From: Pirellulales bacterium
GTDB taxonomy: Bacteria > Planctomycetota > Planctomycetia > Pirellulales > UBA1268
Direction of reading: 5' to 3'
Length of the DNA stretch: 52,208 nucleotides
Assembly (NCBI GenBank): GCA_032117045.1
Contig: JAUMAF010000120.1
Location: forward strand, 1 to 52,208
Below are positions 4,775 to 49,830 of the stretch, piece by piece. Position 1 is the stretch's first letter. Each line of letters opens with the position of its first letter. The translations under genes and the position numbers were made by a program. Under the pieces are notes generated by a model. That model had not been told where the DNA came from and did not search any database. It was given only the letters and a program-made list of their open reading frames with translations.

Positions 4775-5506
4775 TCACCGCCCCGGCTTCGGTCGGGGAG
4801 CCTTCAGGCCCACCCGCGGGCAGAGATCGGCGAGCGGACATTCCTCGCAGCGTGCCGTGCGGGCGGTGCAGATCGTGCGGCCGTGCTCGATGAGGGTATG
4901 GCTGAACGCGATCCAGTGGCGCTCGGGCACGACGCGGACGAGATCCCGCTCGGCACGAACCGCGTCGGCGTGCCTGGTGAGGCCGAGCCGTCGCGTAATT
5001 CGCCCCACATGGGTGTCGACCACGACGCCCGAGGCGATCCCAAACGCCGATCCCATTACCACGTTGGCCGTCTTGCGGCCCACCCCCGGCAGCCGCACGA
5101 GTTCCTCGAGTGTCCGCGGCACTTCGCCGGCATGGCGGGCGACGAGGGCCTGACAGCAGCCCAGAATGCTCTTGGCCTTGGCACGGAAGAATCCCGTGCT
5201 CCGAATCACCGATTCCAGGTCCTGGGGGCGGGCCTCGGCGAGCGAGCCCGCATCAGGCCAGCGGGCAAAGAGGCCGGGCGTCACGGCGTTGACGCGTTTG
5301 TCGGTGCATTGGGCCGAGAGAATCGTCGCCACCAGCAACTGAAAGGGTGAGTCGAAGTCGAGCGAGCAGGCGGCCTGCGGATAGGCTCCGGCCAGCCGCT
5401 CGGCGATGGCGGCAGCACGCTCCCGGCGGGCCAGGACGGTTTCTCGGCCGCGGCCGGCACCGGTCGGCCTTGACTGACCCGTCCGGTCCGGGGTGCTACG
5501 ATTCAT
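4775..5506 (-). CDS. nth: Endonuclease III
   Basis: LLVATILSAQCTDKRVN, HhH-GPD segment LPGVGRKTANVV, C-terminal 4Fe-4S cluster CX6CX2CX5C. Confidence 0.9.
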   Translation of the reverse strand: MNRSTPDRTGQSRPTGAGRGRETVLARRERAAAIAERLAGAYPQAACSLDFDSPFQLLVATILSAQCTDKRVNAVTPGLFARWPDAGSLAEARPQDLESVIRSTGFFRAKAKSILGCCQALVARHAGEVPRTLEELVRLPGVGRKTANVVMGSAFGIASGVVVDTHVGRITRRLGLTRHADAVRAERDLVRVVPERHWIAFSHTLIEHGRTICTARTARCEECPLADLCPRVGLKAPRPKPGR

Positions 5507-5573
5507 GAAGTTTCCCGTCTGGGCGGCTCGCGGACGGACTGCGGGGAAACAACCCAGAGGAGGCGGGCTGCGG

Positions 5574-5978
5574 ATGACGACGGATGCCGACGACTACGAG
5601 CCCCTGTACCTCGCGGGCATCGAGAAGTTCAACGAGTGCGATTATTACGAAAGCCACGAGATTTGGGAGGAACTCTGGACGGAATACCGCGGCGCATCGC
5701 GGAAGTTCTACCAGGGGCTGATCCAGGCGGCCGTGGCGCTCTACCATTTTGGAAATGGCAACATCCGCGGCGCCCGAAAACTGCATGGCAGCGTGCATGG
5801 CTACCTCGAGGCCTACGCCCCACATCATCTGGGGCTTGATGTGAACGCATTTCTGAAGGACTTCGACACCTGCCTGGCCGACGTCGCCGCGAGCACCGAG
5901 GCTTTTCCCGAGATTCAACTCGACCCCGACCTGCTTCCCGAGATTCACCTCGATCCGCCCCCCGCTTCGCCAGTCTGA
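5574..5978 (+). CDS. DUF309-family protein
   Basis: G(I)EKFNECDYYESHEIWEELW...YQGLIQAAVALYHFGNGN matches the DUF309 signature. The ATG at 5574 is preceded by AGAGGAGG. The longer ORF from 5493 overlaps the nth start. Confidence 0.75.
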   Translation: MTTDADDYEPLYLAGIEKFNECDYYESHEIWEELWTEYRGASRKFYQGLIQAAVALYHFGNGNIRGARKLHGSVHGYLEAYAPHHLGLDVNAFLKDFDTCLADVAASTEAFPEIQLDPDLLPEIHLDPPPASPV

Positions 5979-6026
5979 CCAGTCCTTTCAACCGCAACCC
6001 GCAGCCCGCCCTCCCGAGCGACCGCC

Positions 6027-6719
6027 ATGTCCGACGAGCCACTCGCCTTCTCCCCCGACCAGTTCTCGGGACGCGCGCGGCTCTTCCCGTTGCCGAACCT
6101 CGTGATGTTCCCGCATGTCATGCAGGCGCTGCACATCTTCGAGCCGCGGTATCGGGCGATGTTCGAGGAGGCGATCGAAGACGACCGGCTGATCGCGCTG
6201 GGGTCACTCGCCCCGGGATGGGAAGACAACTACGACGGCCGGCCGCCGCTGCGACCGCAGGCCTGCCTCTGCCGGATCGCCACCCACCAGCGGACCGATG
6301 AAGGCACCTACAACGTGCTCGTGCTCGGTGTGCGGAGGCTGCGACTGGATCGTGAGCTGCCCCCCAAGAAGCTGTTTCGCGTGGTCGAGTCGGCGATCAT
6401 GGACGATTTCGAGCCGGCCGAAGCGGCCCCCGGTGCGGCGGCGGGCCTGCAGCGGCAGTTGCTCGATGCGTTCAAGCGATCGATGCCCCAGGTGCCCAAC
6501 GCCTACGAGCAGCTCGACGAACTCCTGGGCAGCCAGATCACCCTGGGAATGCTCACCGACATCGTGGCCTACACCATCGACCTCGACTTCGACATGAAAC
6601 TCCGCCTGCTCGCCGAATGCGACATCTTCGAGCGGGCGCGGCTCCTCCTCGAAGCCGTCGCCTCACGGCCCCCCGTCGGGAGCGGCCGGACCTTCCCCCC
6701 CGATTTCAGCGTCAACTGA
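6027..6719 (+). CDS. LON N-terminal (substrate-binding) domain-only protein
   Basis: LFPLPNLVMFPHVMQALHIFEPRYRAMF is the canonical LON N-domain start. No AAA or protease domain follows. Confidence 0.8.
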   Translation: MSDEPLAFSPDQFSGRARLFPLPNLVMFPHVMQALHIFEPRYRAMFEEAIEDDRLIALGSLAPGWEDNYDGRPPLRPQACLCRIATHQRTDEGTYNVLVLGVRRLRLDRELPPKKLFRVVESAIMDDFEPAEAAPGAAAGLQRQLLDAFKRSMPQVPNAYEQLDELLGSQITLGMLTDIVAYTIDLDFDMKLRLLAECDIFERARLLLEAVASRPPVGSGRTFPPDFSVN

Positions 6720-42022: not shown

Positions 42023-42484
42023 TCAGTCGTCGACGCTGGCCAGAATCGGATCGTCGAGCAGAGGAAGGATCGATGCGGTGGCGGGCTCGCCGGCGAGGGC
42101 GGTCTCCCATTCGTCACAAACGGCTGGCAGGCTTGGCTTCTCGTCGAGAAGCAGCTGCACACCGAGAAGGATGTGGTTGGCGGCGCGGCCGTCGGCGTCG
42201 AACCACTGCCGGAGGATGGCTCGTTCGAAGGCCTTCGGCATGCTCGCCCGCGGACCGCGGTGGATCCGACCGGCCTCCTTGTAGGCATATGTCTCAGGAC
42301 CGATTTCGACGACCGAGATCATGCGGTCGACCTCGCCCCTCTGCGGGGCCGGGGCGGAGGCACACGTGCCGGCGGCGATGACGGTGGGATCTGTCTCACC
42401 GGGGGACACGCCGAGCACGGCATGGGCCGAGACGAGATCGACCGCCGGAATTCCGAGCCACTCACGGCAGGGGTCGAAGGACAT
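42023..42484 (-). CDS. Hypothetical protein with a planctomycete-type WLGIP N-terminal motif
   Basis: DPCREWLGIPA...VLGVSPGETDPTVIAAG resembles the J-like WLGI N-termini common in Planctomycetota. The rest is unrecognised. Confidence 0.45.
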   Translation of the reverse strand: MSFDPCREWLGIPAVDLVSAHAVLGVSPGETDPTVIAAGTCASAPAPQRGEVDRMISVVEIGPETYAYKEAGRIHRGPRASMPKAFERAILRQWFDADGRAANHILLGVQLLLDEKPSLPAVCDEWETALAGEPATASILPLLDDPILASVDD

Positions 42485-42573
42485 GAGTCATGCGGTGAAG
42501 GAGTACGGGAGGGATGCGGAAGCCCATCGACTCGGACATCATCCCTCGCACCCCGTGAGAGCCTAGCAGATGC

Positions 42574-44868
42574 TCACTCGAGCCGTCGCCAGACCGTCAT
42601 CTCGGCGATCGTGTACTGATGCTTGCGGGCCGTCTCCCGGATGACGAACGGCAGGTCCTGCCTGTGAACGAGTGAAAACGTGCCGGCGACCGCCCGCGCC
42701 ATCCCGTCGAACGTCGCCAGCGGCTCGCCATGCTCCCGCCGGCCTCCAAGCCACTTCGACTTCTGCGTGTATTCCTCGAGCCAGGTGTAGGGTGACGTGA
42801 TCACCAGCAGACCGCCGGGCCGGATCCGCGAGGCGATGGCGTCGAGAAACAACGCAGGTTCATAGAGTCGATCGATCAGATTTCCGGCGAAGACGAGGTC
42901 GTAGTCGGTGTAGTTCGCCTTCAGATTGCAGGCATCGCCCTGCATGAAGAGGACCCGGTCTCCAACGGCGGTAAGACCGACTCGATCGAGCGACACCGCC
43001 CGCCCCGCAGTGAGTTCGCCCTCGGTGGGAACCTCATAGAGCACCTCGTCTCCCCGCTGGAGCCGCACTCCCGCCTGGATGAAGCGAGCCGAGAAGTCGA
43101 TGGCATCGACGTGGGCGAAAAAGCGTGCAAACTCGAAGGCCGAGCGGCCCACCGAGCAGCCGATGTCGAGGCAGCGTTGTCGGCGGTCGGCCGGCACGTG
43201 GGGCATCGTGGCCTCCACGCAGGCCTTGGGGAAGTTCGGCACGCCAAGCCGCGTGGCCGTCGTGGCGACAGAAACGCCGCCGGAAGCTTCGTCGGATTTG
43301 CCGGAAGCGGCGTCACAATAGTGGAAGTCGAGGTATTGCGTGACGAGTTGATCCGTCTCGTAAAGCCGCGAGCCGGCCGTCAGCGCCTCGTTGCCCGGCT
43401 CCTCGATGATCGTGCGGAAGCCCGCATGCTGAAAGAAATGCCGACGGAACGCGTAGCGGGCGCTGGCCAACGCCTCGTTGCCCGTCGCAATCCATGAGCC
43501 TCCTTTGATGAGGTTGTGCCGACCGTCGAACGTGGGCACCGAAAAATCGTCGTAGAGTGGATGCACCTCGAAGCCCTTGAACGGCATGATCGGGGTCCGC
43601 GTCCACTGCCAGACGTTGCCCACGATGTCGCAGAACTCGCCCTGAGGAAAGGCGTCGACCGGGCAGCTGGAAGCACCGTGCTCGAGATTGATGTTGCCCG
43701 GCGCCGTCGTCCAGGTCGGTTGGTCGCCCGGCACCGTGTCGCGGAGCACCTGCCAGTGGGCCTCCGTCGGCAGGAGCACGTTTTCGCCCGATGTCGCTGC
43801 GAGCCACGCGCAGTATGCCTGCGCCTCGAGGCAGTTGACCTCGACCGGCCAGTTCAGGGGAAGCGGGATCTCGTCGAGCAGATTTCGCTGAAGGAAAGCC
43901 TCGTTCCGCCGCACCCAAAATTTCGGATGTTCGGCCCGCGTGTAGTGCAGCCAGCCCCGGCCTTCCTCGGTCCACCACTGTTCGTCACGATATCCGCCGG
44001 CGGCCACGAACTCCATGAACTCGGCGTTCGAGACGAGCCTCCTGCCGGCCCGAAAGGCGGGCAGCGTCACCTGCTCGACGCCGTATTCGTTGTCCCAGCC
44101 GTAGGTGCGGTCGTCCGATCGCTTGCCGAGGTGCACCGATGTTGCCGCCACCGGCAGCCACTCGTTGGGAGGCGACGCACCGCTCGTCGAGCAGGCTCGC
44201 CAGAGACGCCGCTCGTCCGCGGTCAGTTCAGTGCCGTGCCGGAGTTCTTCGAGCGGCATCTGCCGCATGATCACGCTCGACGTTTCGAGGTGGATTCGCT
44301 CGTGCTCGATGCCCATCAGGATCAGCCACGCGGGAGAGTTCCAGCGAATGGGCAACTCCAGCGGCATCGTCTGAATGAACTGATCGACGAGCTCTCGCAT
44401 GGCCGCCCGATAGCGGCGAACCTCCGCCACCGAAGGCCAGTCGTAGTGGGCGGTGTTGAGATCATCCCACGACATCTCATCGACGCCCACCGCCATCATC
44501 GACTCGAGCGAGGGATCGAGCCGTTCGGGGATGTAGCGACCGGCTGTTAGTTTGTTGAGATAAAAGACGGCCGGATGGGCGAAGTAGAAGATCAGCGGAT
44601 GGCGAAGCGGCTCGTGCCGCACGTAATACGATGCCTCGTCCTTGATGAGGTCGAAGAGCCGTTCGTAGATCTCGCAGGTCTGGTGGAAGTACCGCCGGAG
44701 TTCGGCCCGCTTCGCGGCCACCGGGTCGCTCGCATCCGGGGCCGCGTCGAGGAGCGGGGTGCGGGTGGGCGTCAGCGGCCTGGAGAGATCCGAGAACCGA
44801 GCGATATCCGAGGGCTGGCCCGCGACGTGGGCTGGGGCCCCCTTGCCCGAAGGAGCGGTCGGCTGCAT
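42574..44868 (-). CDS. ovoA: 5-histidylcysteine sulfoxide synthase / methyltransferase OvoA (ovothiol biosynthesis)
   Basis: DinB-like N-domain (YFHQTCEIYERLF...HPLIFYFAHPAVFYLNK), FGE-sulfatase domain (GNVWQWT), C-terminal SAM methyltransferase (CLDIGCSVGRSAFEFA). Start at MQPTAPSG (44868), 26 nt after the upstream stop. Confidence 0.85.
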   Translation of the reverse strand: MQPTAPSGKGAPAHVAGQPSDIARFSDLSRPLTPTRTPLLDAAPDASDPVAAKRAELRRYFHQTCEIYERLFDLIKDEASYYVRHEPLRHPLIFYFAHPAVFYLNKLTAGRYIPERLDPSLESMMAVGVDEMSWDDLNTAHYDWPSVAEVRRYRAAMRELVDQFIQTMPLELPIRWNSPAWLILMGIEHERIHLETSSVIMRQMPLEELRHGTELTADERRLWRACSTSGASPPNEWLPVAATSVHLGKRSDDRTYGWDNEYGVEQVTLPAFRAGRRLVSNAEFMEFVAAGGYRDEQWWTEEGRGWLHYTRAEHPKFWVRRNEAFLQRNLLDEIPLPLNWPVEVNCLEAQAYCAWLAATSGENVLLPTEAHWQVLRDTVPGDQPTWTTAPGNINLEHGASSCPVDAFPQGEFCDIVGNVWQWTRTPIMPFKGFEVHPLYDDFSVPTFDGRHNLIKGGSWIATGNEALASARYAFRRHFFQHAGFRTIIEEPGNEALTAGSRLYETDQLVTQYLDFHYCDAASGKSDEASGGVSVATTATRLGVPNFPKACVEATMPHVPADRRQRCLDIGCSVGRSAFEFARFFAHVDAIDFSARFIQAGVRLQRGDEVLYEVPTEGELTAGRAVSLDRVGLTAVGDRVLFMQGDACNLKANYTDYDLVFAGNLIDRLYEPALFLDAIASRIRPGGLLVITSPYTWLEEYTQKSKWLGGRREHGEPLATFDGMARAVAGTFSLVHRQDLPFVIRETARKHQYTIAEMTVWRRLE

Positions 44869-44893
44869 GGGGTAATCCGCGAAGTGTCGAGAC

Positions 44894-45922
44894 TTACGAG
44901 TCCGTAACTTTAGCACCACTTCGGAGGCCGGCCACCAACGGTGCTGGGATCGCCGACGAGGCCCCGAGCAGCGATCCGACAACCGCCCCGCGGTGGCAGT
45001 TGTCGCCGCCGCACCGGGCATTCGCAAAGACACCGGCGGCGAAGTCGCCCGCATGCCGGTAGGCCAGCGCGAGCGACGCCGGAAAGGCCTCGTCGATGTA
45101 GCAGGCCGAACTGAGGGTGCCTCCCACCAGTTGCCGATCGGAAAGCCCCTCCCAGCCGCGGAGCTTGGCCGCGGAAATCCAGTCGCGGCCATGCTCGAGA
45201 ATCGCCTCCCGCAGCGCGGCCGCCGATTCGTCCGCCGTGGGCGTGGTCGCCTCGGGCCGTGGGATCACGTCAACCAGGATTCGCACCAGCGAGTCGGCCG
45301 CCGCCAGCACGTCGTCGTCCTTGTGTGTCAGGTTCACGTGGAGGCGGACGATCCGCCGCAGGTCGGGGTGCCGGGCACCGACCGCGGCGACGAGCGCCGG
45401 CACGGGAACGAGGCCGCCGATATGCACGTCACGGACGCCGCTGTTGATCGGCTTGCGGCCTGCCGCGAGGTTCGTGAAGAAGTGTCGGTGGTACTCCTCC
45501 AGATACGTGTCTCGATGCCGATCGGGCTCGAGCATGAAGGCGACATAATGCTCGAGCCACCGCTCCGGATCGTAGTCGCGATCACGGCGGACGAGTGCGA
45601 AGAGTTCGACCGCCAGCTGCGAGTTGAGCGTGTTCTCACCCGCTGCCAGAAACTGGTGGTAATGCACGCCGCGTTTGCCCCAGTCTGCCGCCCGTTCACG
45701 GAGGATGTCGAAGGCCGGCGACGGCGGTGTCCAACTCGACCGCCAGAGAATGCTGTCGGGATGCGGGCTCTGCGGAGCGAGATAGCCGGTGATCGAGCCG
45801 TAGTCGCGTTCGAGCGCCCGCTGGTCGTAATACCAATGGACGGGCATGGCCACGGCGTCGGCGACGAGCGCCCCCATGAACGCAGAGCGGGCGGCATCGA
45901 GGAGGGGAAGAGGAGCGGTCAT
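44894..45922 (-). CDS. ADP-ribosylglycohydrolase-family protein, atypical
   Basis: GALVADAVAMPVHWYY N-terminal motif and C-terminal GGDNCHRGAVVGSLLGA align to the ARH-family GDAlG.P.E and GGDTDT.aai.Gal.Ga motifs. ATGA overlap with the upstream ABC ATPase stop. Confidence 0.8.
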   Translation of the reverse strand: MTAPLPLLDAARSAFMGALVADAVAMPVHWYYDQRALERDYGSITGYLAPQSPHPDSILWRSSWTPPSPAFDILRERAADWGKRGVHYHQFLAAGENTLNSQLAVELFALVRRDRDYDPERWLEHYVAFMLEPDRHRDTYLEEYHRHFFTNLAAGRKPINSGVRDVHIGGLVPVPALVAAVGARHPDLRRIVRLHVNLTHKDDDVLAAADSLVRILVDVIPRPEATTPTADESAAALREAILEHGRDWISAAKLRGWEGLSDRQLVGGTLSSACYIDEAFPASLALAYRHAGDFAAGVFANARCGGDNCHRGAVVGSLLGASSAIPAPLVAGLRSGAKVTDS

Positions 45923-46671
45923 GCGTGAAGCGTCCGTCGGAGAAACTCACGAATCCGTGAGTCGGTGGTCTGGTCAAGAAAAGCGGCGGTGGTGCCGTGG
46001 GCCGTGACGCGGCCGTCGGCGATGAAGGCGATTTCGTCGGCCACGCGGCGGGCGAAGCCCATCTCGTGCGTCACGAGCACGAACTGGGTGCCACCGAGCT
46101 TGAGTTCGGCGATCATCTCGAGCACCTCGGCGGTCATCTCGGGGTCGAGGGCCGAGGTGGGCTCGTCGAGAAACAACCGCCGGGGCCGCACGACAAGCGC
46201 CCTCAAGATCGCGATCCGCTGCTTCTGCCCACCGGAGAGCTCTGCGGGCCGCTTGTGGGCATGCGGTGTGAGGCCGAACCGTTCGAGCGGCTCGCGAACC
46301 CGCTCGCGGGCCTCGTGCTCCGTGAGGCCGTGGACGTGCACGAGCGGCAGCAGGAGGTTCTGCAGGCCGGTGAGGTGCGGAAACAGGTTGTAAGCCTGAA
46401 AGACTGTGCCGACGGTACGGCGATAGCCGCGGAGCGCGGCCTCGTCGCGGGGCAGCGGGGCGCCGTCGAAGGCAACGCTCCCGGACACCGGCACGTCGAG
46501 GCCGGCCAGGATTCGGAGGAGCGTCGACTTGCCGCCGCCGGAAGGGCCGATGAGCACGAGGGCCTGGATATCGCCGGTGACGAGGTCCAGCCCGTCGAGC
46601 ACGGTGGCTGCCTGTCGCGATCCGCGGGGGCCGTCGAACCGCTGCACGAGTCCATGGATTGAGAGCTTCAT
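45919..46671 (-). CDS. Polar amino-acid ABC transporter ATP-binding protein
   Basis: GPSGGGKSTLLR, LSGGQKQRIAILRAL, LFLDEPTSALD. The ATG at 46671 overlaps the permease stop. The 452-aa ORF extension is frame-shadow. Confidence 0.9.
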   Translation of the reverse strand: MKLSIHGLVQRFDGPRGSRQAATVLDGLDLVTGDIQALVLIGPSGGGKSTLLRILAGLDVPVSGSVAFDGAPLPRDEAALRGYRRTVGTVFQAYNLFPHLTGLQNLLLPLVHVHGLTEHEARERVREPLERFGLTPHAHKRPAELSGGQKQRIAILRALVVRPRRLFLDEPTSALDPEMTAEVLEMIAELKLGGTQFVLVTHEMGFARRVADEIAFIADGRVTAHGTTAAFLDQTTDSRIREFLRRTLHA

Positions 46672-47411
46672 GCGGCCTCGTAGCGGAACCGGCGCTCGAG
46701 CCAGCGGGAGAGCGCCGAGAGCGGCAGGGTCACGGCGAGGTAGCCGGCGGCCAGCGGGAGGTAGCTCTCGAGCGTGGAGTAGGTGGCGGAGTTGACGTTG
46801 CGGGCGTTGAAGGTGAACTCCGCGATCGAGATCACGGAGAGGAGTGACGAATCCTTGACGAGCGACACGAGCTGGCCGGCCACGGAGGGCAGCACGATCC
46901 GCACCGCCTGCGGCAGCACCACGAGCCGGAGCATCTGCCAGGGGGTGAGGCCGATGGCCCGGCCGCTGTCGAGCTGGGCCTTCGGGATCGCGTCGAGGCC
47001 GCCGCGAAAAATCTCGGCCATGTAGGCGCCGCTGAACAACGACAGCACGAGGACGCCGACCAGATAGCGGTGGTCCGTGCCGACCCGCAGAGCCGCGGCG
47101 ATCACGTACCAGCCGATGAGCAGCTGCACGAGCAACGGCGTGCCGCGAATGAGCTCCACGTAGACGCGGGCGGCGGCCTGCACGAGCACGATGGGCGAGC
47201 GGAGCATCAGGGCGGCCACGACACCGATCAGGCTGCTGGTGACGAGAGCCGCGATGCTCAGCGCCAGCGTCGTCCACCAGCCCTGCCAGAACGCCGCACG
47301 GTATTCCCAGACGATGCCCCAGTTCCAGTTCATGTCGAGGCTGGCGAAGGCCAGCGCACCGCCGCCAGCAAGCACAGCGAGCACGATCAGAGAGGCGAGC
47401 CAGCGGGGCAT
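46668..47411 (-). CDS. Polar amino-acid ABC transporter permease (HisM/GlnP type)
   Basis: ELIRGTPLLVQL..., EIFRGGLDAIPKAQLDSGRAIGLT (EAA loop). Confidence 0.9.
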   Translation of the reverse strand: MPRWLASLIVLAVLAGGGALAFASLDMNWNWGIVWEYRAAFWQGWWTTLALSIAALVTSSLIGVVAALMLRSPIVLVQAAARVYVELIRGTPLLVQLLIGWYVIAAALRVGTDHRYLVGVLVLSLFSGAYMAEIFRGGLDAIPKAQLDSGRAIGLTPWQMLRLVVLPQAVRIVLPSVAGQLVSLVKDSSLLSVISIAEFTFNARNVNSATYSTLESYLPLAAGYLAVTLPLSALSRWLERRFRYEAA

Positions 47412-47427
47412 GGGTGCGGCTTCCGCG

Positions 47428-48231
47428 CTAGAAATAAAAGGGGATGGCATGCGCTTTGAAATACGCCTTCTGCTCGGCGAGGAACTCGTCGCCGAGCCGC
47501 TCGAAGCCCCCCTCCGCCCGAAACGTCTCCAGAAACGCATTGACCTGGCGGCGGAGTTCATCGTTGCCCTGCCGCAGACCCACCGCCCACGACTCCGCAC
47601 GAAAGGGCTGCAACGCGGCCCGCGTCTTCTGCGGATGCCGCCGGTGGTTCGTGTAGACCGACATCGAGTCGTAAATGAAGGCGTCGGCGCGGCCTTGCAG
47701 CACCTCCAGCACGGCCGAGGCCTCGGTGTCGAGCACGAGCACCTTTGCCTTCGTCAGCGATGAGGCCGCCCACTGCTGGCCGGTGGTTCCCTGCTTGACT
47801 GCCACGACGCGGCCTGCGACGTCGAGATCGGCGGCCGTCTGCACGGGCGACGCTGTCGCGATCAGGAGGGCCAGGCCCGTCTTCAGGTAGGGCTCGGAGA
47901 AGGCGATCGACTTTGCCCGCTCAGGCGTCGCGGTCATCGACGAGATTACGCAGTCGACGCCCCGCGATTTGAGCGCGGGAATGAGCCCGTCGAAGGCGAT
48001 GTTTTCGATCACGACGGGGCGGCCGAGGTGCCTGCCCAGGGCCTCGGCGAGCCGCACGCTCACGCCCGCCGGTCGGCCTTGCGGGTCGGTCATCTCGAAG
48101 GGCGGATAGGAGAGCTCCATGCCCACCCGCAGGGGTTCGGTGGCCCATGCCATCCCGGCCAGCGCCGTCCACAGGGCCATTCCACCCACGAGTCCTGCGA
48201 GCCATCGACACGGTTGTTGAATCGCCGACAT
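47428..48231 (-). CDS. Polar amino-acid ABC transporter substrate-binding protein (family 3)
   Basis: Signal peptide, then LRVGMELSYPPFEMTD..., DGLIPALKSRGVDCVISSMTATPERAK. Confidence 0.9.
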   Translation of the reverse strand: MSAIQQPCRWLAGLVGGMALWTALAGMAWATEPLRVGMELSYPPFEMTDPQGRPAGVSVRLAEALGRHLGRPVVIENIAFDGLIPALKSRGVDCVISSMTATPERAKSIAFSEPYLKTGLALLIATASPVQTAADLDVAGRVVAVKQGTTGQQWAASSLTKAKVLVLDTEASAVLEVLQGRADAFIYDSMSVYTNHRRHPQKTRAALQPFRAESWAVGLRQGNDELRRQVNAFLETFRAEGGFERLGDEFLAEQKAYFKAHAIPFYF

Positions 48232-48384
48232 GGGGTCTGCTCCTGACTCAGAACGTAGCCTGCCCGCTGTCGGCCGTCCACGGCTGAAGGGCGAGCCGCA
48301 CCACCGCCGGGCTGGACCTCATGCGTAGAGTTCCGCGGCGCGTGGTCCGGTCGGCGATCGGTGGCAGAGGCGAGGTGGTGAGGT

Positions 48385-49830
48385 ATGGGCATCACAGGTC
48401 GACTGATGTCGGCGGCCGTGGTGGCCGTCGCCTTGGCTCCGGCGGCGTTGCCGGCCGACCGCGAGGCCCGTTGCGTGGTCGTCGACGTCTTCGTGCGAAG
48501 CGCTGACGAAACCACCACCGACGTACTCGCCTGCGTCGAGCGTTTTGCGGCGAGACGCCCGGGCGTGAGCGTCGTTGCCCGATTCGTCGATACGGTGCCC
48601 GAAGACCAGGTGGCCGTCGTGGCGCTGGCGTCGAAGCACGGCTTCGACGCCAATGAACTGCCGGTGGTGCAGGCGTGCGACTCGGTTATTCATGGCGTCC
48701 GGGATCCGGCGGCGGTGGTGGCCCGCGTCATGGTGGCGCTGCAGGTGGAGGTCTTCGTGCGGCAGGGATGCAGACGCTGCGCCGCGGCGAAGGCCTGGCT
48801 TCCGACGCTTCAGGCCAGGTACCCCGGCTTCGACATCGTCATGTGTGACATCGCCGCCGACAGCGGTGGCCGCCAGGCTCTGGCGGAACTCGTGCGGCGG
48901 CATCGTACCGCCGCCGCCAGCGTGCCGGTCTTTTATGCATGCAACCGGCTCGTGGTCGGATTTGACGATCCTGCGACATCAGGTCCGAGGGTCGAGCAGG
49001 TGTTGCGTGCGTGGACGAGGGACTGCCGGGTGCCGGTGGGCCTCGAGACCGAAGGCGTGGGCGATGCCTCCGAGCACCTTCCCGACGAGACGATCGACGT
49101 GCCGTGGCTTGGGAGGCTCGACCCTGGCCGTTTGGGCATGCCGCTGTTCACACTCGCCATCGGTCTCGTCGATGGCTTCAATCCGTGTGCGATGTGGGTG
49201 CTGCTGCTGCTCCTTTCGATCCTCGTCAATCTCCGGAGCCGCTGGCGCATCCTGGCCGTGGCGGGAACATTCGTGCTCGTGAGCGGCGCAGCCTACTTCG
49301 CCTTCATGGCCGCCTGGCTCAACGTGTTCGAGTGGGTCGGGATGCTGCGTCCGGTTCAGGTCGTGCTCGGCTTCTCTGCAGTGGCCATCGGCATGGTGCA
49401 CGTCAAGGACTGGTTCGTTCCCGACCGCGGCCCCTCGCTCTCGATTCCGCAGGCCGCAAAGCCGGGCATTTATGCCCGCATCCGCACGATCGTGAACGCT
49501 GAGAATCTGCCGGCGGCCGTGGGCGGGGCGTTGGTGCTCGCGGTCCTCGTCAACGTCGTGGAGTTGCTCTGCACCGCAGGACTGCCGGCGCTCTACACGG
49601 GCATCCTGACCCAGCGGGGCTATTCCGCGGCTGTCCGCTATGGCTACCTTGGCCTCTACATCGCGGCCTACATGTTCGACGACGCCCTGATGGTCGCGGT
49701 GGTAACGGCCACCCTTGGTCGCTGCAAACTTCAGGAGTCGGGAGGCCGGTGGCTGAAGCTCACCAGTGGCCTGGTGATTCTGGCGCTCGGACTCACGATG
49801 CTGCTACGGCCGGAGTGGCTGGAGGCGTGA
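48385..49830 (+). CDS. Periplasmic tandem glutaredoxin/thioredoxin-fold domains fused to a CcdA/DsbD-like multi-pass membrane domain
   Basis: Signal peptide. First fold lacks CxxC (VVVDVFVRSADE). Second has VEVFVRQGCRRCAAAKAWL. The membrane part has LVDGFNPCAMWVLLLLL and ELLCTAGLPALY. Confidence 0.7.
   Translation: MGITGRLMSAAVVAVALAPAALPADREARCVVVDVFVRSADETTTDVLACVERFAARRPGVSVVARFVDTVPEDQVAVVALASKHGFDANELPVVQACDSVIHGVRDPAAVVARVMVALQVEVFVRQGCRRCAAAKAWLPTLQARYPGFDIVMCDIAADSGGRQALAELVRRHRTAAASVPVFYACNRLVVGFDDPATSGPRVEQVLRAWTRDCRVPVGLETEGVGDASEHLPDETIDVPWLGRLDPGRLGMPLFTLAIGLVDGFNPCAMWVLLLLLSILVNLRSRWRILAVAGTFVLVSGAAYFAFMAAWLNVFEWVGMLRPVQVVLGFSAVAIGMVHVKDWFVPDRGPSLSIPQAAKPGIYARIRTIVNAENLPAAVGGALVLAVLVNVVELLCTAGLPALYTGILTQRGYSAAVRYGYLGLYIAAYMFDDALMVAVVTATLGRCKLQESGGRWLKLTSGLVILALGLTMLLRPEWLEA

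Follow-up and report, generated by a model that had tools for sequence, protein, structure and literature searches.

The window analysed here is a stretch of 52,208 nt (G+C ca. 67%), contig JAUMAF010000120.1, from a Pirellulales bacterium whose genome is 87% complete. The closest database proteins to those of the window, where they are named, bear planctomycete labels such as Pirellulales and Planctomycetia. Five genes on its minus strand encode an ATP-binding cassette (ABC) importer of three components, a protein with the ADP-ribosylglycohydrolase (ARH) fold, and the ovothiol synthesis enzyme OvoA. A preliminary description of the region, made from the sequence alone, had listed these five genes, and all of the open reading frames (ORFs) are present:

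47428..48231, minus strand: family-3 periplasmic substrate-binding protein (SBP), 267 aa, signal-like N-terminus (PF00497)
46668..47411, minus strand: ABC importer permease, 247 aa (PF00528 and TIGR01726, the HEQRo three-transmembrane (3-TM) domain)
45919..46671, minus strand: ABC importer ATPase, 250 aa (PF00005)
44894..45922, minus strand: ARH-fold protein, 342 aa (PF03747)
42574..44868, minus strand: OvoA, bifunctional, 764 aa (TIGR04344 and TIGR04345)
43408..44721, minus strand: N-terminal 5-histidylcysteine sulfoxide synthase domain of OvoA (DinB_2 and FGE-sulfatase)
42583..43362, minus strand: C-terminal 5-thiohistidine Nπ-methyltransferase domain of OvoA (TIGR04345)

The close packing reported for these genes can be read directly at their junctions. 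The stop codon of the SBP gene (TAG) is followed after 16 nt by the ATG of the permease. The sequence GCATGAAG is common to the permease and ATPase genes, and GCATGACC is common to the ATPase and ARH genes; both are ATGA overlaps. Between the TAA stop of ARH and the ATG of ovoA at 44868 lies a spacer of 25 nt, so that the gap of 26 nt given previously is right as to the close spacing but takes in the first base of the start codon. A start at 45192 would give OvoA its longest ORF; it was rejected because it would overlap ARH by ca. 300 nt and because relatives favour 44868.

Both halves of OvoA score above the cut-offs of their families. The N-terminal half matches TIGR04344 over residues 50–487 (634.8 bits, cut-off 400) and has Pfam matches to DinB_2 and FGE-sulfatase, and the C-terminal half matches TIGR04345 over residues 503–762 (292.9 bits, cut-off 170). 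The preliminary description had noted that no OvoB-like lyase is adjacent, and none was found in the window region. This puzzle has an ordinary answer, since the same genome encodes an unlinked PatB/MalY-type C-S lyase (G000:C145:16532–17644; TIGR04350, 393.7 bits, cut-off 340) that, going by its sequence family, is a plausible OvoB.

The importer is of the polar amino acid type: a single operon encodes an SBP_bac_3 protein (PF00497, E 1e-32), a BPD_transp_1 permease with the HEQRo 3-TM domain (TIGR01726, 74 bits, cut-off 42) and an ABC ATPase. Against the named NCBIfam equivalogs, among them those for cystine, GlnH, ArtI/J, HisJ and LAO, the SBP did not reach the cut-off in any case. Its top NCBIfam score was 138 bits against 256 (LAO subfamily), the cystine-binding model was second (122 bits, cut-off 312), and HisJ scored 72 bits against a cut-off of 459. 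When the SBP was searched against the PDB by sequence, arginine/glutamine-type binding proteins matched best.

The ARH protein belongs to its fold family by both sequence and structure. It matches PF03747 with 128 bits (cut-off 26); no NCBIfam model matched. The AlphaFold2 model (pLDDT, the predicted local distance difference test score, 95) was matched by Foldseek to 1t5j, 2woe and 3g9d with a probability of 1.00. Target-normalised TM-scores were 0.75 to MJ1187 (1t5j) and 0.74–0.75 to DraG, and query-normalised scores were 0.64–0.67. Sequence identity to these structures is 14–21%; a single-sequence search of the PDB with ARH returned nothing, and a profile was needed to align DraG.

That profile alignment indicates that the metal site has been rebuilt. 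Six residues of DraG are ligands of the binuclear Mg/Mn site (E28, D60, D61, D243, D245 and T246), and only one of them is retained, D243 as D307. The others are replaced – E28 by H29, D60 by L, D61 by N97, D245 by C309, and T246 by H310 – and the motifs change accordingly, from TDD to T-L-N and from GGDADT to GGDNCH. New near-invariant residues are also present: H87, H89, D138, R146 and R311. Most of these signature residues, including H29 and C309, are found in 80 of 80 family loci, while D22, N97 and H310 are found in 79. Despite its fold, this protein is not a canonical ADP-ribosylhydrolase, and annotation as such is unsuitable. The genome has a second PF03747 gene (G000:C91:1904–2860, plus strand, 120 bits), which lies outside the ARH subfamily and was missed when the ARH protein was used as the query at E<=1e-20.

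The ARH subfamily is small, with 1423 representatives at E<=1e-3 among 1.84 billion proteins. Members with 40–47% identity are found in Desulfobacterota, Geobacteraceae, green algae, a choanoflagellate and amoebae. Neither OvoA nor ABC genes were found in the three distant bacterial contexts sampled. In one of these ARH lies beside a SOUL protein (L088), in another beside an amine-oxidase/DUF1365/cyclopropane-fatty-acid-synthase cluster (L090), and in the third beside a universal stress protein. In L090 (7001–12148), the adjoining genes of the 46%-identical ARH are an amine oxidase, DUF1365 and two cyclopropane-fatty-acid-synthase genes. In another family, a 38–44%-identical ARH adjoins an amino acid permease (L081). 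Among gene fusions of the Rosetta-stone kind, the subfamily showed only tandem ARH domains or unannotated extensions.

A scan of a genome collection with the ARH protein found 80 loci, nearly all of them in planctomycete metagenome-assembled genomes (MAGs) from lakes and oceans, and nearly all ordered SBP-permease-ATPase-ARH-OvoA. The family to which the window belongs has 176 genomes in 12 genera, 83 of high quality. ARH was found in 161 of the 176, in 81 of the 83 high-quality genomes and in every genus; an OvoA match was found in 159 genomes and all 12 genera. Twelve of the 15 genomes negative for ARH were also negative for OvoA, the pattern that a single missing contig would give – eleven of these are incomplete (51–86%), and the twelfth has a completeness of 88% and a contamination of 5%. 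Some of the MAGs carry titles of 'Candidatus Kuenenia' or 'Chitinophaga' (L006, L015–L017, L023, L026, L063, L074 and others); these labels look wrong, since their ARH sequences nest within the family tree.

Gene starts in the relatives were set by a heuristic, so the counts of junctions are approximate. ATPase and ARH overlap in 39 of 77 loci, in 35 of them by exactly 4 nt, and ARH and OvoA overlap or are separated by no more than 30 nt in 61 of 71. The gap between SBP and permease is loose, at more than 100 nt in 33 of 45 loci. This packing exceeds chance. The five genes form a real operon, inherited within one family, and are presumably transcribed together.

Outside the family, the phylum was covered with an even sample of 401 genomes. 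It includes 23 genomes from elsewhere in the order (n = 3) and class (n = 20), all of them 99–100% complete, and in these neither SBP nor ARH nor OvoA was found. In the 12 OvoA-bearing genomes of other planctomycete families in this sample, a family-3 SBP, where present, is on a different contig from OvoA, and the sole such genome with ARH (G331) has ARH and OvoA on separate contigs. Because it is absent from the order and class, and because other OvoA-bearing planctomycetes are arranged differently, the block was acquired at the level of this family and does not go with ovoA in general. The possibility that the arrangement was peculiar to this one genome, raised in the preliminary description, does not hold, since the order is kept across 12 genera; the linkage of ARH and the importer to ovoA extends over the whole family (ca. 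160 of 176 genomes) and is specific to it. Among the papers searched, none pairs ovothiol with an ADP-ribosylglycohydrolase and none describes the arrangement.

The split OvoA loci of Kiloniella and another bacterium have no ARH or ABC operon adjacent. In Kiloniella (L085, 5337–8744), OvoA is divided into synthase and methyltransferase genes, a PALP-family pyridoxal phosphate (PLP) enzyme is divergent alongside, and AsnC, LysE and a family-3 binding protein lie downstream. This binding protein was considered as a relative of the window SBP and is not related. Linkage as a general trait of OvoA, or of the ARH subfamily, was also rejected, as other OvoA loci and the distant ARH contexts are without it.

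Three genera of the family (g294, g298 and g299; 28 genomes, including an assembly of 5 contigs) have the genes for SBP, permease, ATPase and ARH followed by a stand-alone TIGR04345 methyltransferase. This protein of 252–270 aa corresponds to OvoA residues ca. 490–764 and scores 254–274 bits, above the cut-off. A search for the N-terminal half of OvoA gave no match above 42 bits in 10 of these methyltransferase-only genomes. In 5 others (92–95% complete), no EgtB/SenA-type synthase was found above the cut-off, only FGE-domain fragments. The ratio of non-synonymous to synonymous substitution rates (dN/dS) in the methyltransferase-only lineages is 0.03–0.17 for SBP, permease, ATPase, ARH and methyltransferase, no higher than in the clade with full-length OvoA, so that purifying selection is strong; every ARH signature residue is retained. 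In the ARH tree these lineages fall into two groups on long stems (0.36–0.72 substitutions per site). The five-gene block of these genera is also found with quite different flanking genes (L097–L100); being intact there, it is kept as a unit beyond local synteny. A PatB-type lyase is found in 149 of the 176 family genomes, the methyltransferase-only genera included. Its joint loss with the synthase half was looked for across the family genomes and not seen. ARH as a substitute for OvoB was rejected as its main role, as it is kept at a dN/dS of ca. 0.05 in genera without the synthase and a PatB-type lyase exists in the window genome.

ARH itself has been lost or moved in five genomes, and in all five the importer and OvoA are adjacent. 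Where ARH is gone from L094, a DDE transposase (5418–6212) lies between the ATPase and ovoA. Between permease and ATPase, L091 (6840–7394) and L094 (3581–4138) have a conserved ORF of 184–185 aa with no family match, overlapping the permease stop. A relocated ARH (L014, 912–4704) lies between a DASS-family transporter (Na/sulfate-citrate type) and a methyltransferase. The latter was examined as a member of TIGR04345 and is instead a generic class-I enzyme, which makes this a second trio of transporter, ARH and methyltransferase, drawn from different families. Because the synthase half is missing in three genera and ARH is lost or moved in a few genomes, the conserved core of the operon is the importer and the Nπ-methyltransferase, which are never separated; the synthase half is optional, and ARH is near-constant but movable. 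Hitch-hiking, which the preliminary description had offered as one explanation of the operon, may thus hold for ARH, whose loss or relocation did not break the pair of ABC importer and OvoA.

The genes present, their coupling, their distribution, the pattern of losses and the purifying selection on them were all observed; the importer's ligand, the ARH reaction and co-transcription are what we infer from here on. Our preferred reading, which we hold tentatively and at somewhat less than even confidence, is that the operon may be an ovothiol supply module with two inputs, one by uptake and salvage of a thiohistidine-type compound and one by de novo synthesis. For the first input, the importer would take up from the water a thiohistidine-type amino acid that is already formed, which could be 5-thiohistidine itself or a conjugate or oxidation product of it released by algae and animals that make ovothiol. 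ARH, most likely a metal-dependent hydrolase, would act ahead of methylation and release or repair the substrate that had been imported or oxidised. The methyltransferase would then convert the thiohistidine-type substrate to ovothiol A. For the second input, which would operate in the window genome and in 9 of the 12 genera, the synthase domain of OvoA would make the precursor de novo, with the unlinked PatB/MalY-type lyase acting as OvoB. The methyltransferase-only genera bear on this directly. A methyltransferase specific for 5-thiohistidine needs a substrate and no synthase was found, so the importer is the simplest source of a thiohistidine. Also in favour of salvage are the transporters beside ARH in L014 and L081, the retention of the block with other flanks, and the precedent of OvsM, a stand-alone methyltransferase that does not accept histidine. 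A stronger form of the proposal is rather unlikely: that this would be the first bacterial route for uptake and salvage of 5-thiohistidine-type compounds, in which ARH, with its site rebuilt from His, Cys and Asn, would carry out a new hydrolysis or repair on an imported conjugate or oxidation product, and an OvoA-type methyltransferase would finish ovothiol A.

A number of observations weigh against the salvage proposal. A single origin of the methyltransferase-only state is not rejected (p = 0.23 in the approximately unbiased (AU) test), so that the state may come from one event, and both loss and later gain of the synthase half fit. Several independent losses of the synthase half therefore cannot be claimed, and adding L097 and L099 left the matter unsettled. 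The occurrence of the PatB-type lyase does not follow that of the synthase half, since 25 of 32 genomes in the methyltransferase-only genera have it, and elsewhere there are stand-alone methyltransferase orphans with neither importer nor ARH. ARH is not indispensable: three genomes of the window's own genus (G491, G499 and G540) have SBP-permease-ATPase-OvoA without it, and in two more (G498 and G541) it is on another contig. The subfamily is absent from 11 of 12 OvoA-bearing planctomycetes of other families, its Desulfobacterota members (40–47% identity) are in unrelated gene contexts, and its distant relatives look like general oxidative-stress genes. The SBP is the sole stand-alone SBP_bac_3 gene in the window genome, incomplete as that is, and this could be a general amino acid importer kept for its own sake. 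Part of the conservation is also plain synteny, since the flanking aroA and iron-containing alcohol dehydrogenase (Fe-ADH) genes are syntenic across most loci.

The main rival to salvage is co-regulation of two independent antioxidant functions; supply of substrates to OvoA comes after it, and then synteny. Under co-regulation the genes would share a photo-oxidative (singlet-oxygen) stress regulon and no substrate, and the target of ARH would be a damaged metabolite or protein adduct of another kind. We consider this rather doubtful, but the spread of so small a subfamily over bacteria, green algae, a choanoflagellate and amoebae is in its favour, as is the way that ARH leaves the operon while the importer and OvoA stay together. 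So are the neighbours of ARH in L088 (SOUL protein) and L090, whose amine-oxidase/DUF1365/cyclopropane-fatty-acid-synthase cluster we take to resemble the RSP1091-1087 operon. The Rhodobacter sigma-E core regulon for singlet oxygen includes cyclopropane-fatty-acid synthase and the RSP1091-1087 operon (PMC3546557). In Chlamydomonas, the SAK1-dependent singlet-oxygen genes include an 'ADP-ribosylglycohydrolase' (Cre01.g016150), an enzyme with an FGE-sulfatase domain on the next line of the table, a SOUL protein and cyclopropane-fatty-acid synthase (PMC4067076, Table 5). This Chlamydomonas gene resembles ARH by its annotation name, and no Chlamydomonas member was found among 20 representatives of the subfamily. 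Just two of the three sampled distant contexts fit a stress regulon, and the 4-nt overlap of ARH with the ATPase in 35 of 77 loci, together with the position of ARH between importer and methyltransferase in new contexts, is tighter than a regulon needs.

The preliminary description had preferred the supply of substrates. On this reading the importer would provide OvoA with histidine and/or with cysteine or cystine, and the presence of ARH would be incidental. Histidine and cysteine are the substrates of OvoA, the cystine-binding model is the second-best NCBIfam match of the SBP and HisJ matches too, and ABC importer and OvoA are adjacent even without ARH. The equivalog scores are far under their cut-offs, though, and OvoA operons elsewhere are without such an importer. 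This explanation is weakened above all by the three synthase-less genera, because the importer, ARH and methyltransferase genes are still linked and under constraint there (dN/dS 0.03–0.17) without the domain that consumes histidine and cysteine. We think it unlikely; the salvage or accessory module that was named as its alternative fits better, with the ligand and the ARH step as its conjectural parts. Finally, the genes may be neighbours merely by descent in one family, on a shared transcript without functional reason. The conserved order of aroA and Fe-ADH next to them agrees with this, as does the restriction of the linkage to one family. A published survey that covers 5 kb around every such synthase in NCBI (PMC13674229) does not list ARH among the co-occurring genes, which points the same way. 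Against it, 4-nt overlaps are maintained across genera, the block is intact with different flanks, all three components are absent from the 23 genomes sampled elsewhere in the order and class, and the methyltransferase is under selection in lineages without the synthase half. As a full explanation synteny is quite improbable.

Two further features border the operon:

48232..48384, no strand: divergent intergenic region of 153 nt, from the SBP start to an oppositely oriented thioredoxin-fold/CcdA-like gene
42023..42484, minus strand: ORF of 153 aa, 89 nt 3' of ovoA on the same strand (no Pfam match)

Judging by its position, the intergenic region probably holds the operon promoter. A scan for the sigma-70 consensus found no site, and nothing in a promoter and terminator scan of the locus exceeded the shuffled background. 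The divergent gene (48385–49830, plus strand) encodes 481 aa with a weak glutaredoxin match, and had been described as thioredoxin-fold and CcdA/DsbD-like. Its homologues (62–75% identity) are upstream of the operon in L002, L013, L065, L091 and L096, and this is not general. Just past the ovoA stop, at 42513–42556 on the minus strand, is an 8-bp inverted repeat (GAGGGATG ... CATCCCTC) with a long loop and without a T-run, which could be a transcript end or could be meaningless. Downstream are the 153-aa ORF, the convergent Fe-ADH gene and aroA. By tblastn, the 153-aa ORF is in the same place in many, not all, related loci (34–84% identity) and was not found in the methyltransferase-only loci. 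Its membership of the operon is uncertain.

Ovothiol is among the strongest natural thiol antioxidants, and to our knowledge its genetics are known only as far as OvoA and OvoB. If salvage is correct, planctomycetes unable to form the C-S bond could still make ovothiol A. The family is a natural experiment, having genera with and without the synthase half and a few losses of ARH while importer and methyltransferase are constant. The long-standing question of whether ergothioneine is the only thiohistidine that bacteria can take up from outside becomes directly testable, with three proteins named. A compact, conserved subfamily of the ARH fold with a rebuilt metal site, found in bacteria, green algae and protists, is also brought to attention. 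Even if salvage is wrong, the analysis shows where ovoA is located in abundant bacteria of lakes and oceans, and that the name 'ADP-ribosylglycohydrolase' misleads when given to the gene next to it.

Several known systems resemble parts of this operon. DraG, ARH1-3 and MJ1187 (PF03747) share the fold of the window ARH, with a Pfam match above the gathering score, but in the window protein five of six metal-site positions are replaced and no ADP-ribosyltransferase partner is nearby. HisJQMP, ArtPIQMJ, GlnHPQ and TcyJLN are likewise composed of a family-3 SBP, a 3-TM permease and an ATPase, in the typical order of a type-I importer, while the window SBP belongs to no named equivalog. EgtUV is an ergothioneine importer and shows that bacteria import a thiohistidine; it is of the OpuC/glycine-betaine type and is unrelated to the window importer. 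We know of no importer of ovothiol or 5-thiohistidine and of no salvage route for them. Such an importer has been a matter of speculation only (PMC8433421).

The pathway of ovothiol A in Erwinia tasmaniensis consists of OvoA and the PLP lyase OvoB. The window OvoA likewise has both domains and a lyase candidate is in the genome, but here the lyase is unlinked and ovoA stands at the end of an importer operon, separated from the importer genes by one for an ARH-fold protein. Related planctomycete genera differ further in keeping the methyltransferase half alone. For this half the closest parallel is in the ovoselenol pathway, where the stand-alone methyltransferase OvsM methylates 5-selenohistidine and not histidine (PMC11030361). 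OvsM and the TIGR04345 genes of g294, g298 and g299 are alike as stand-alone Nπ-methyltransferases, acting in the case of OvsM on a 5-chalcogen-histidine. The gene for OvsM accompanies that for its synthase, OvsA, as well as senB/C, which are selenosugar genes (PMC11030361), whereas the methyltransferase-only planctomycetes, searched without finding an OvoA/EgtB/SenA-type synthase above the cut-off, have the importer and ARH instead.

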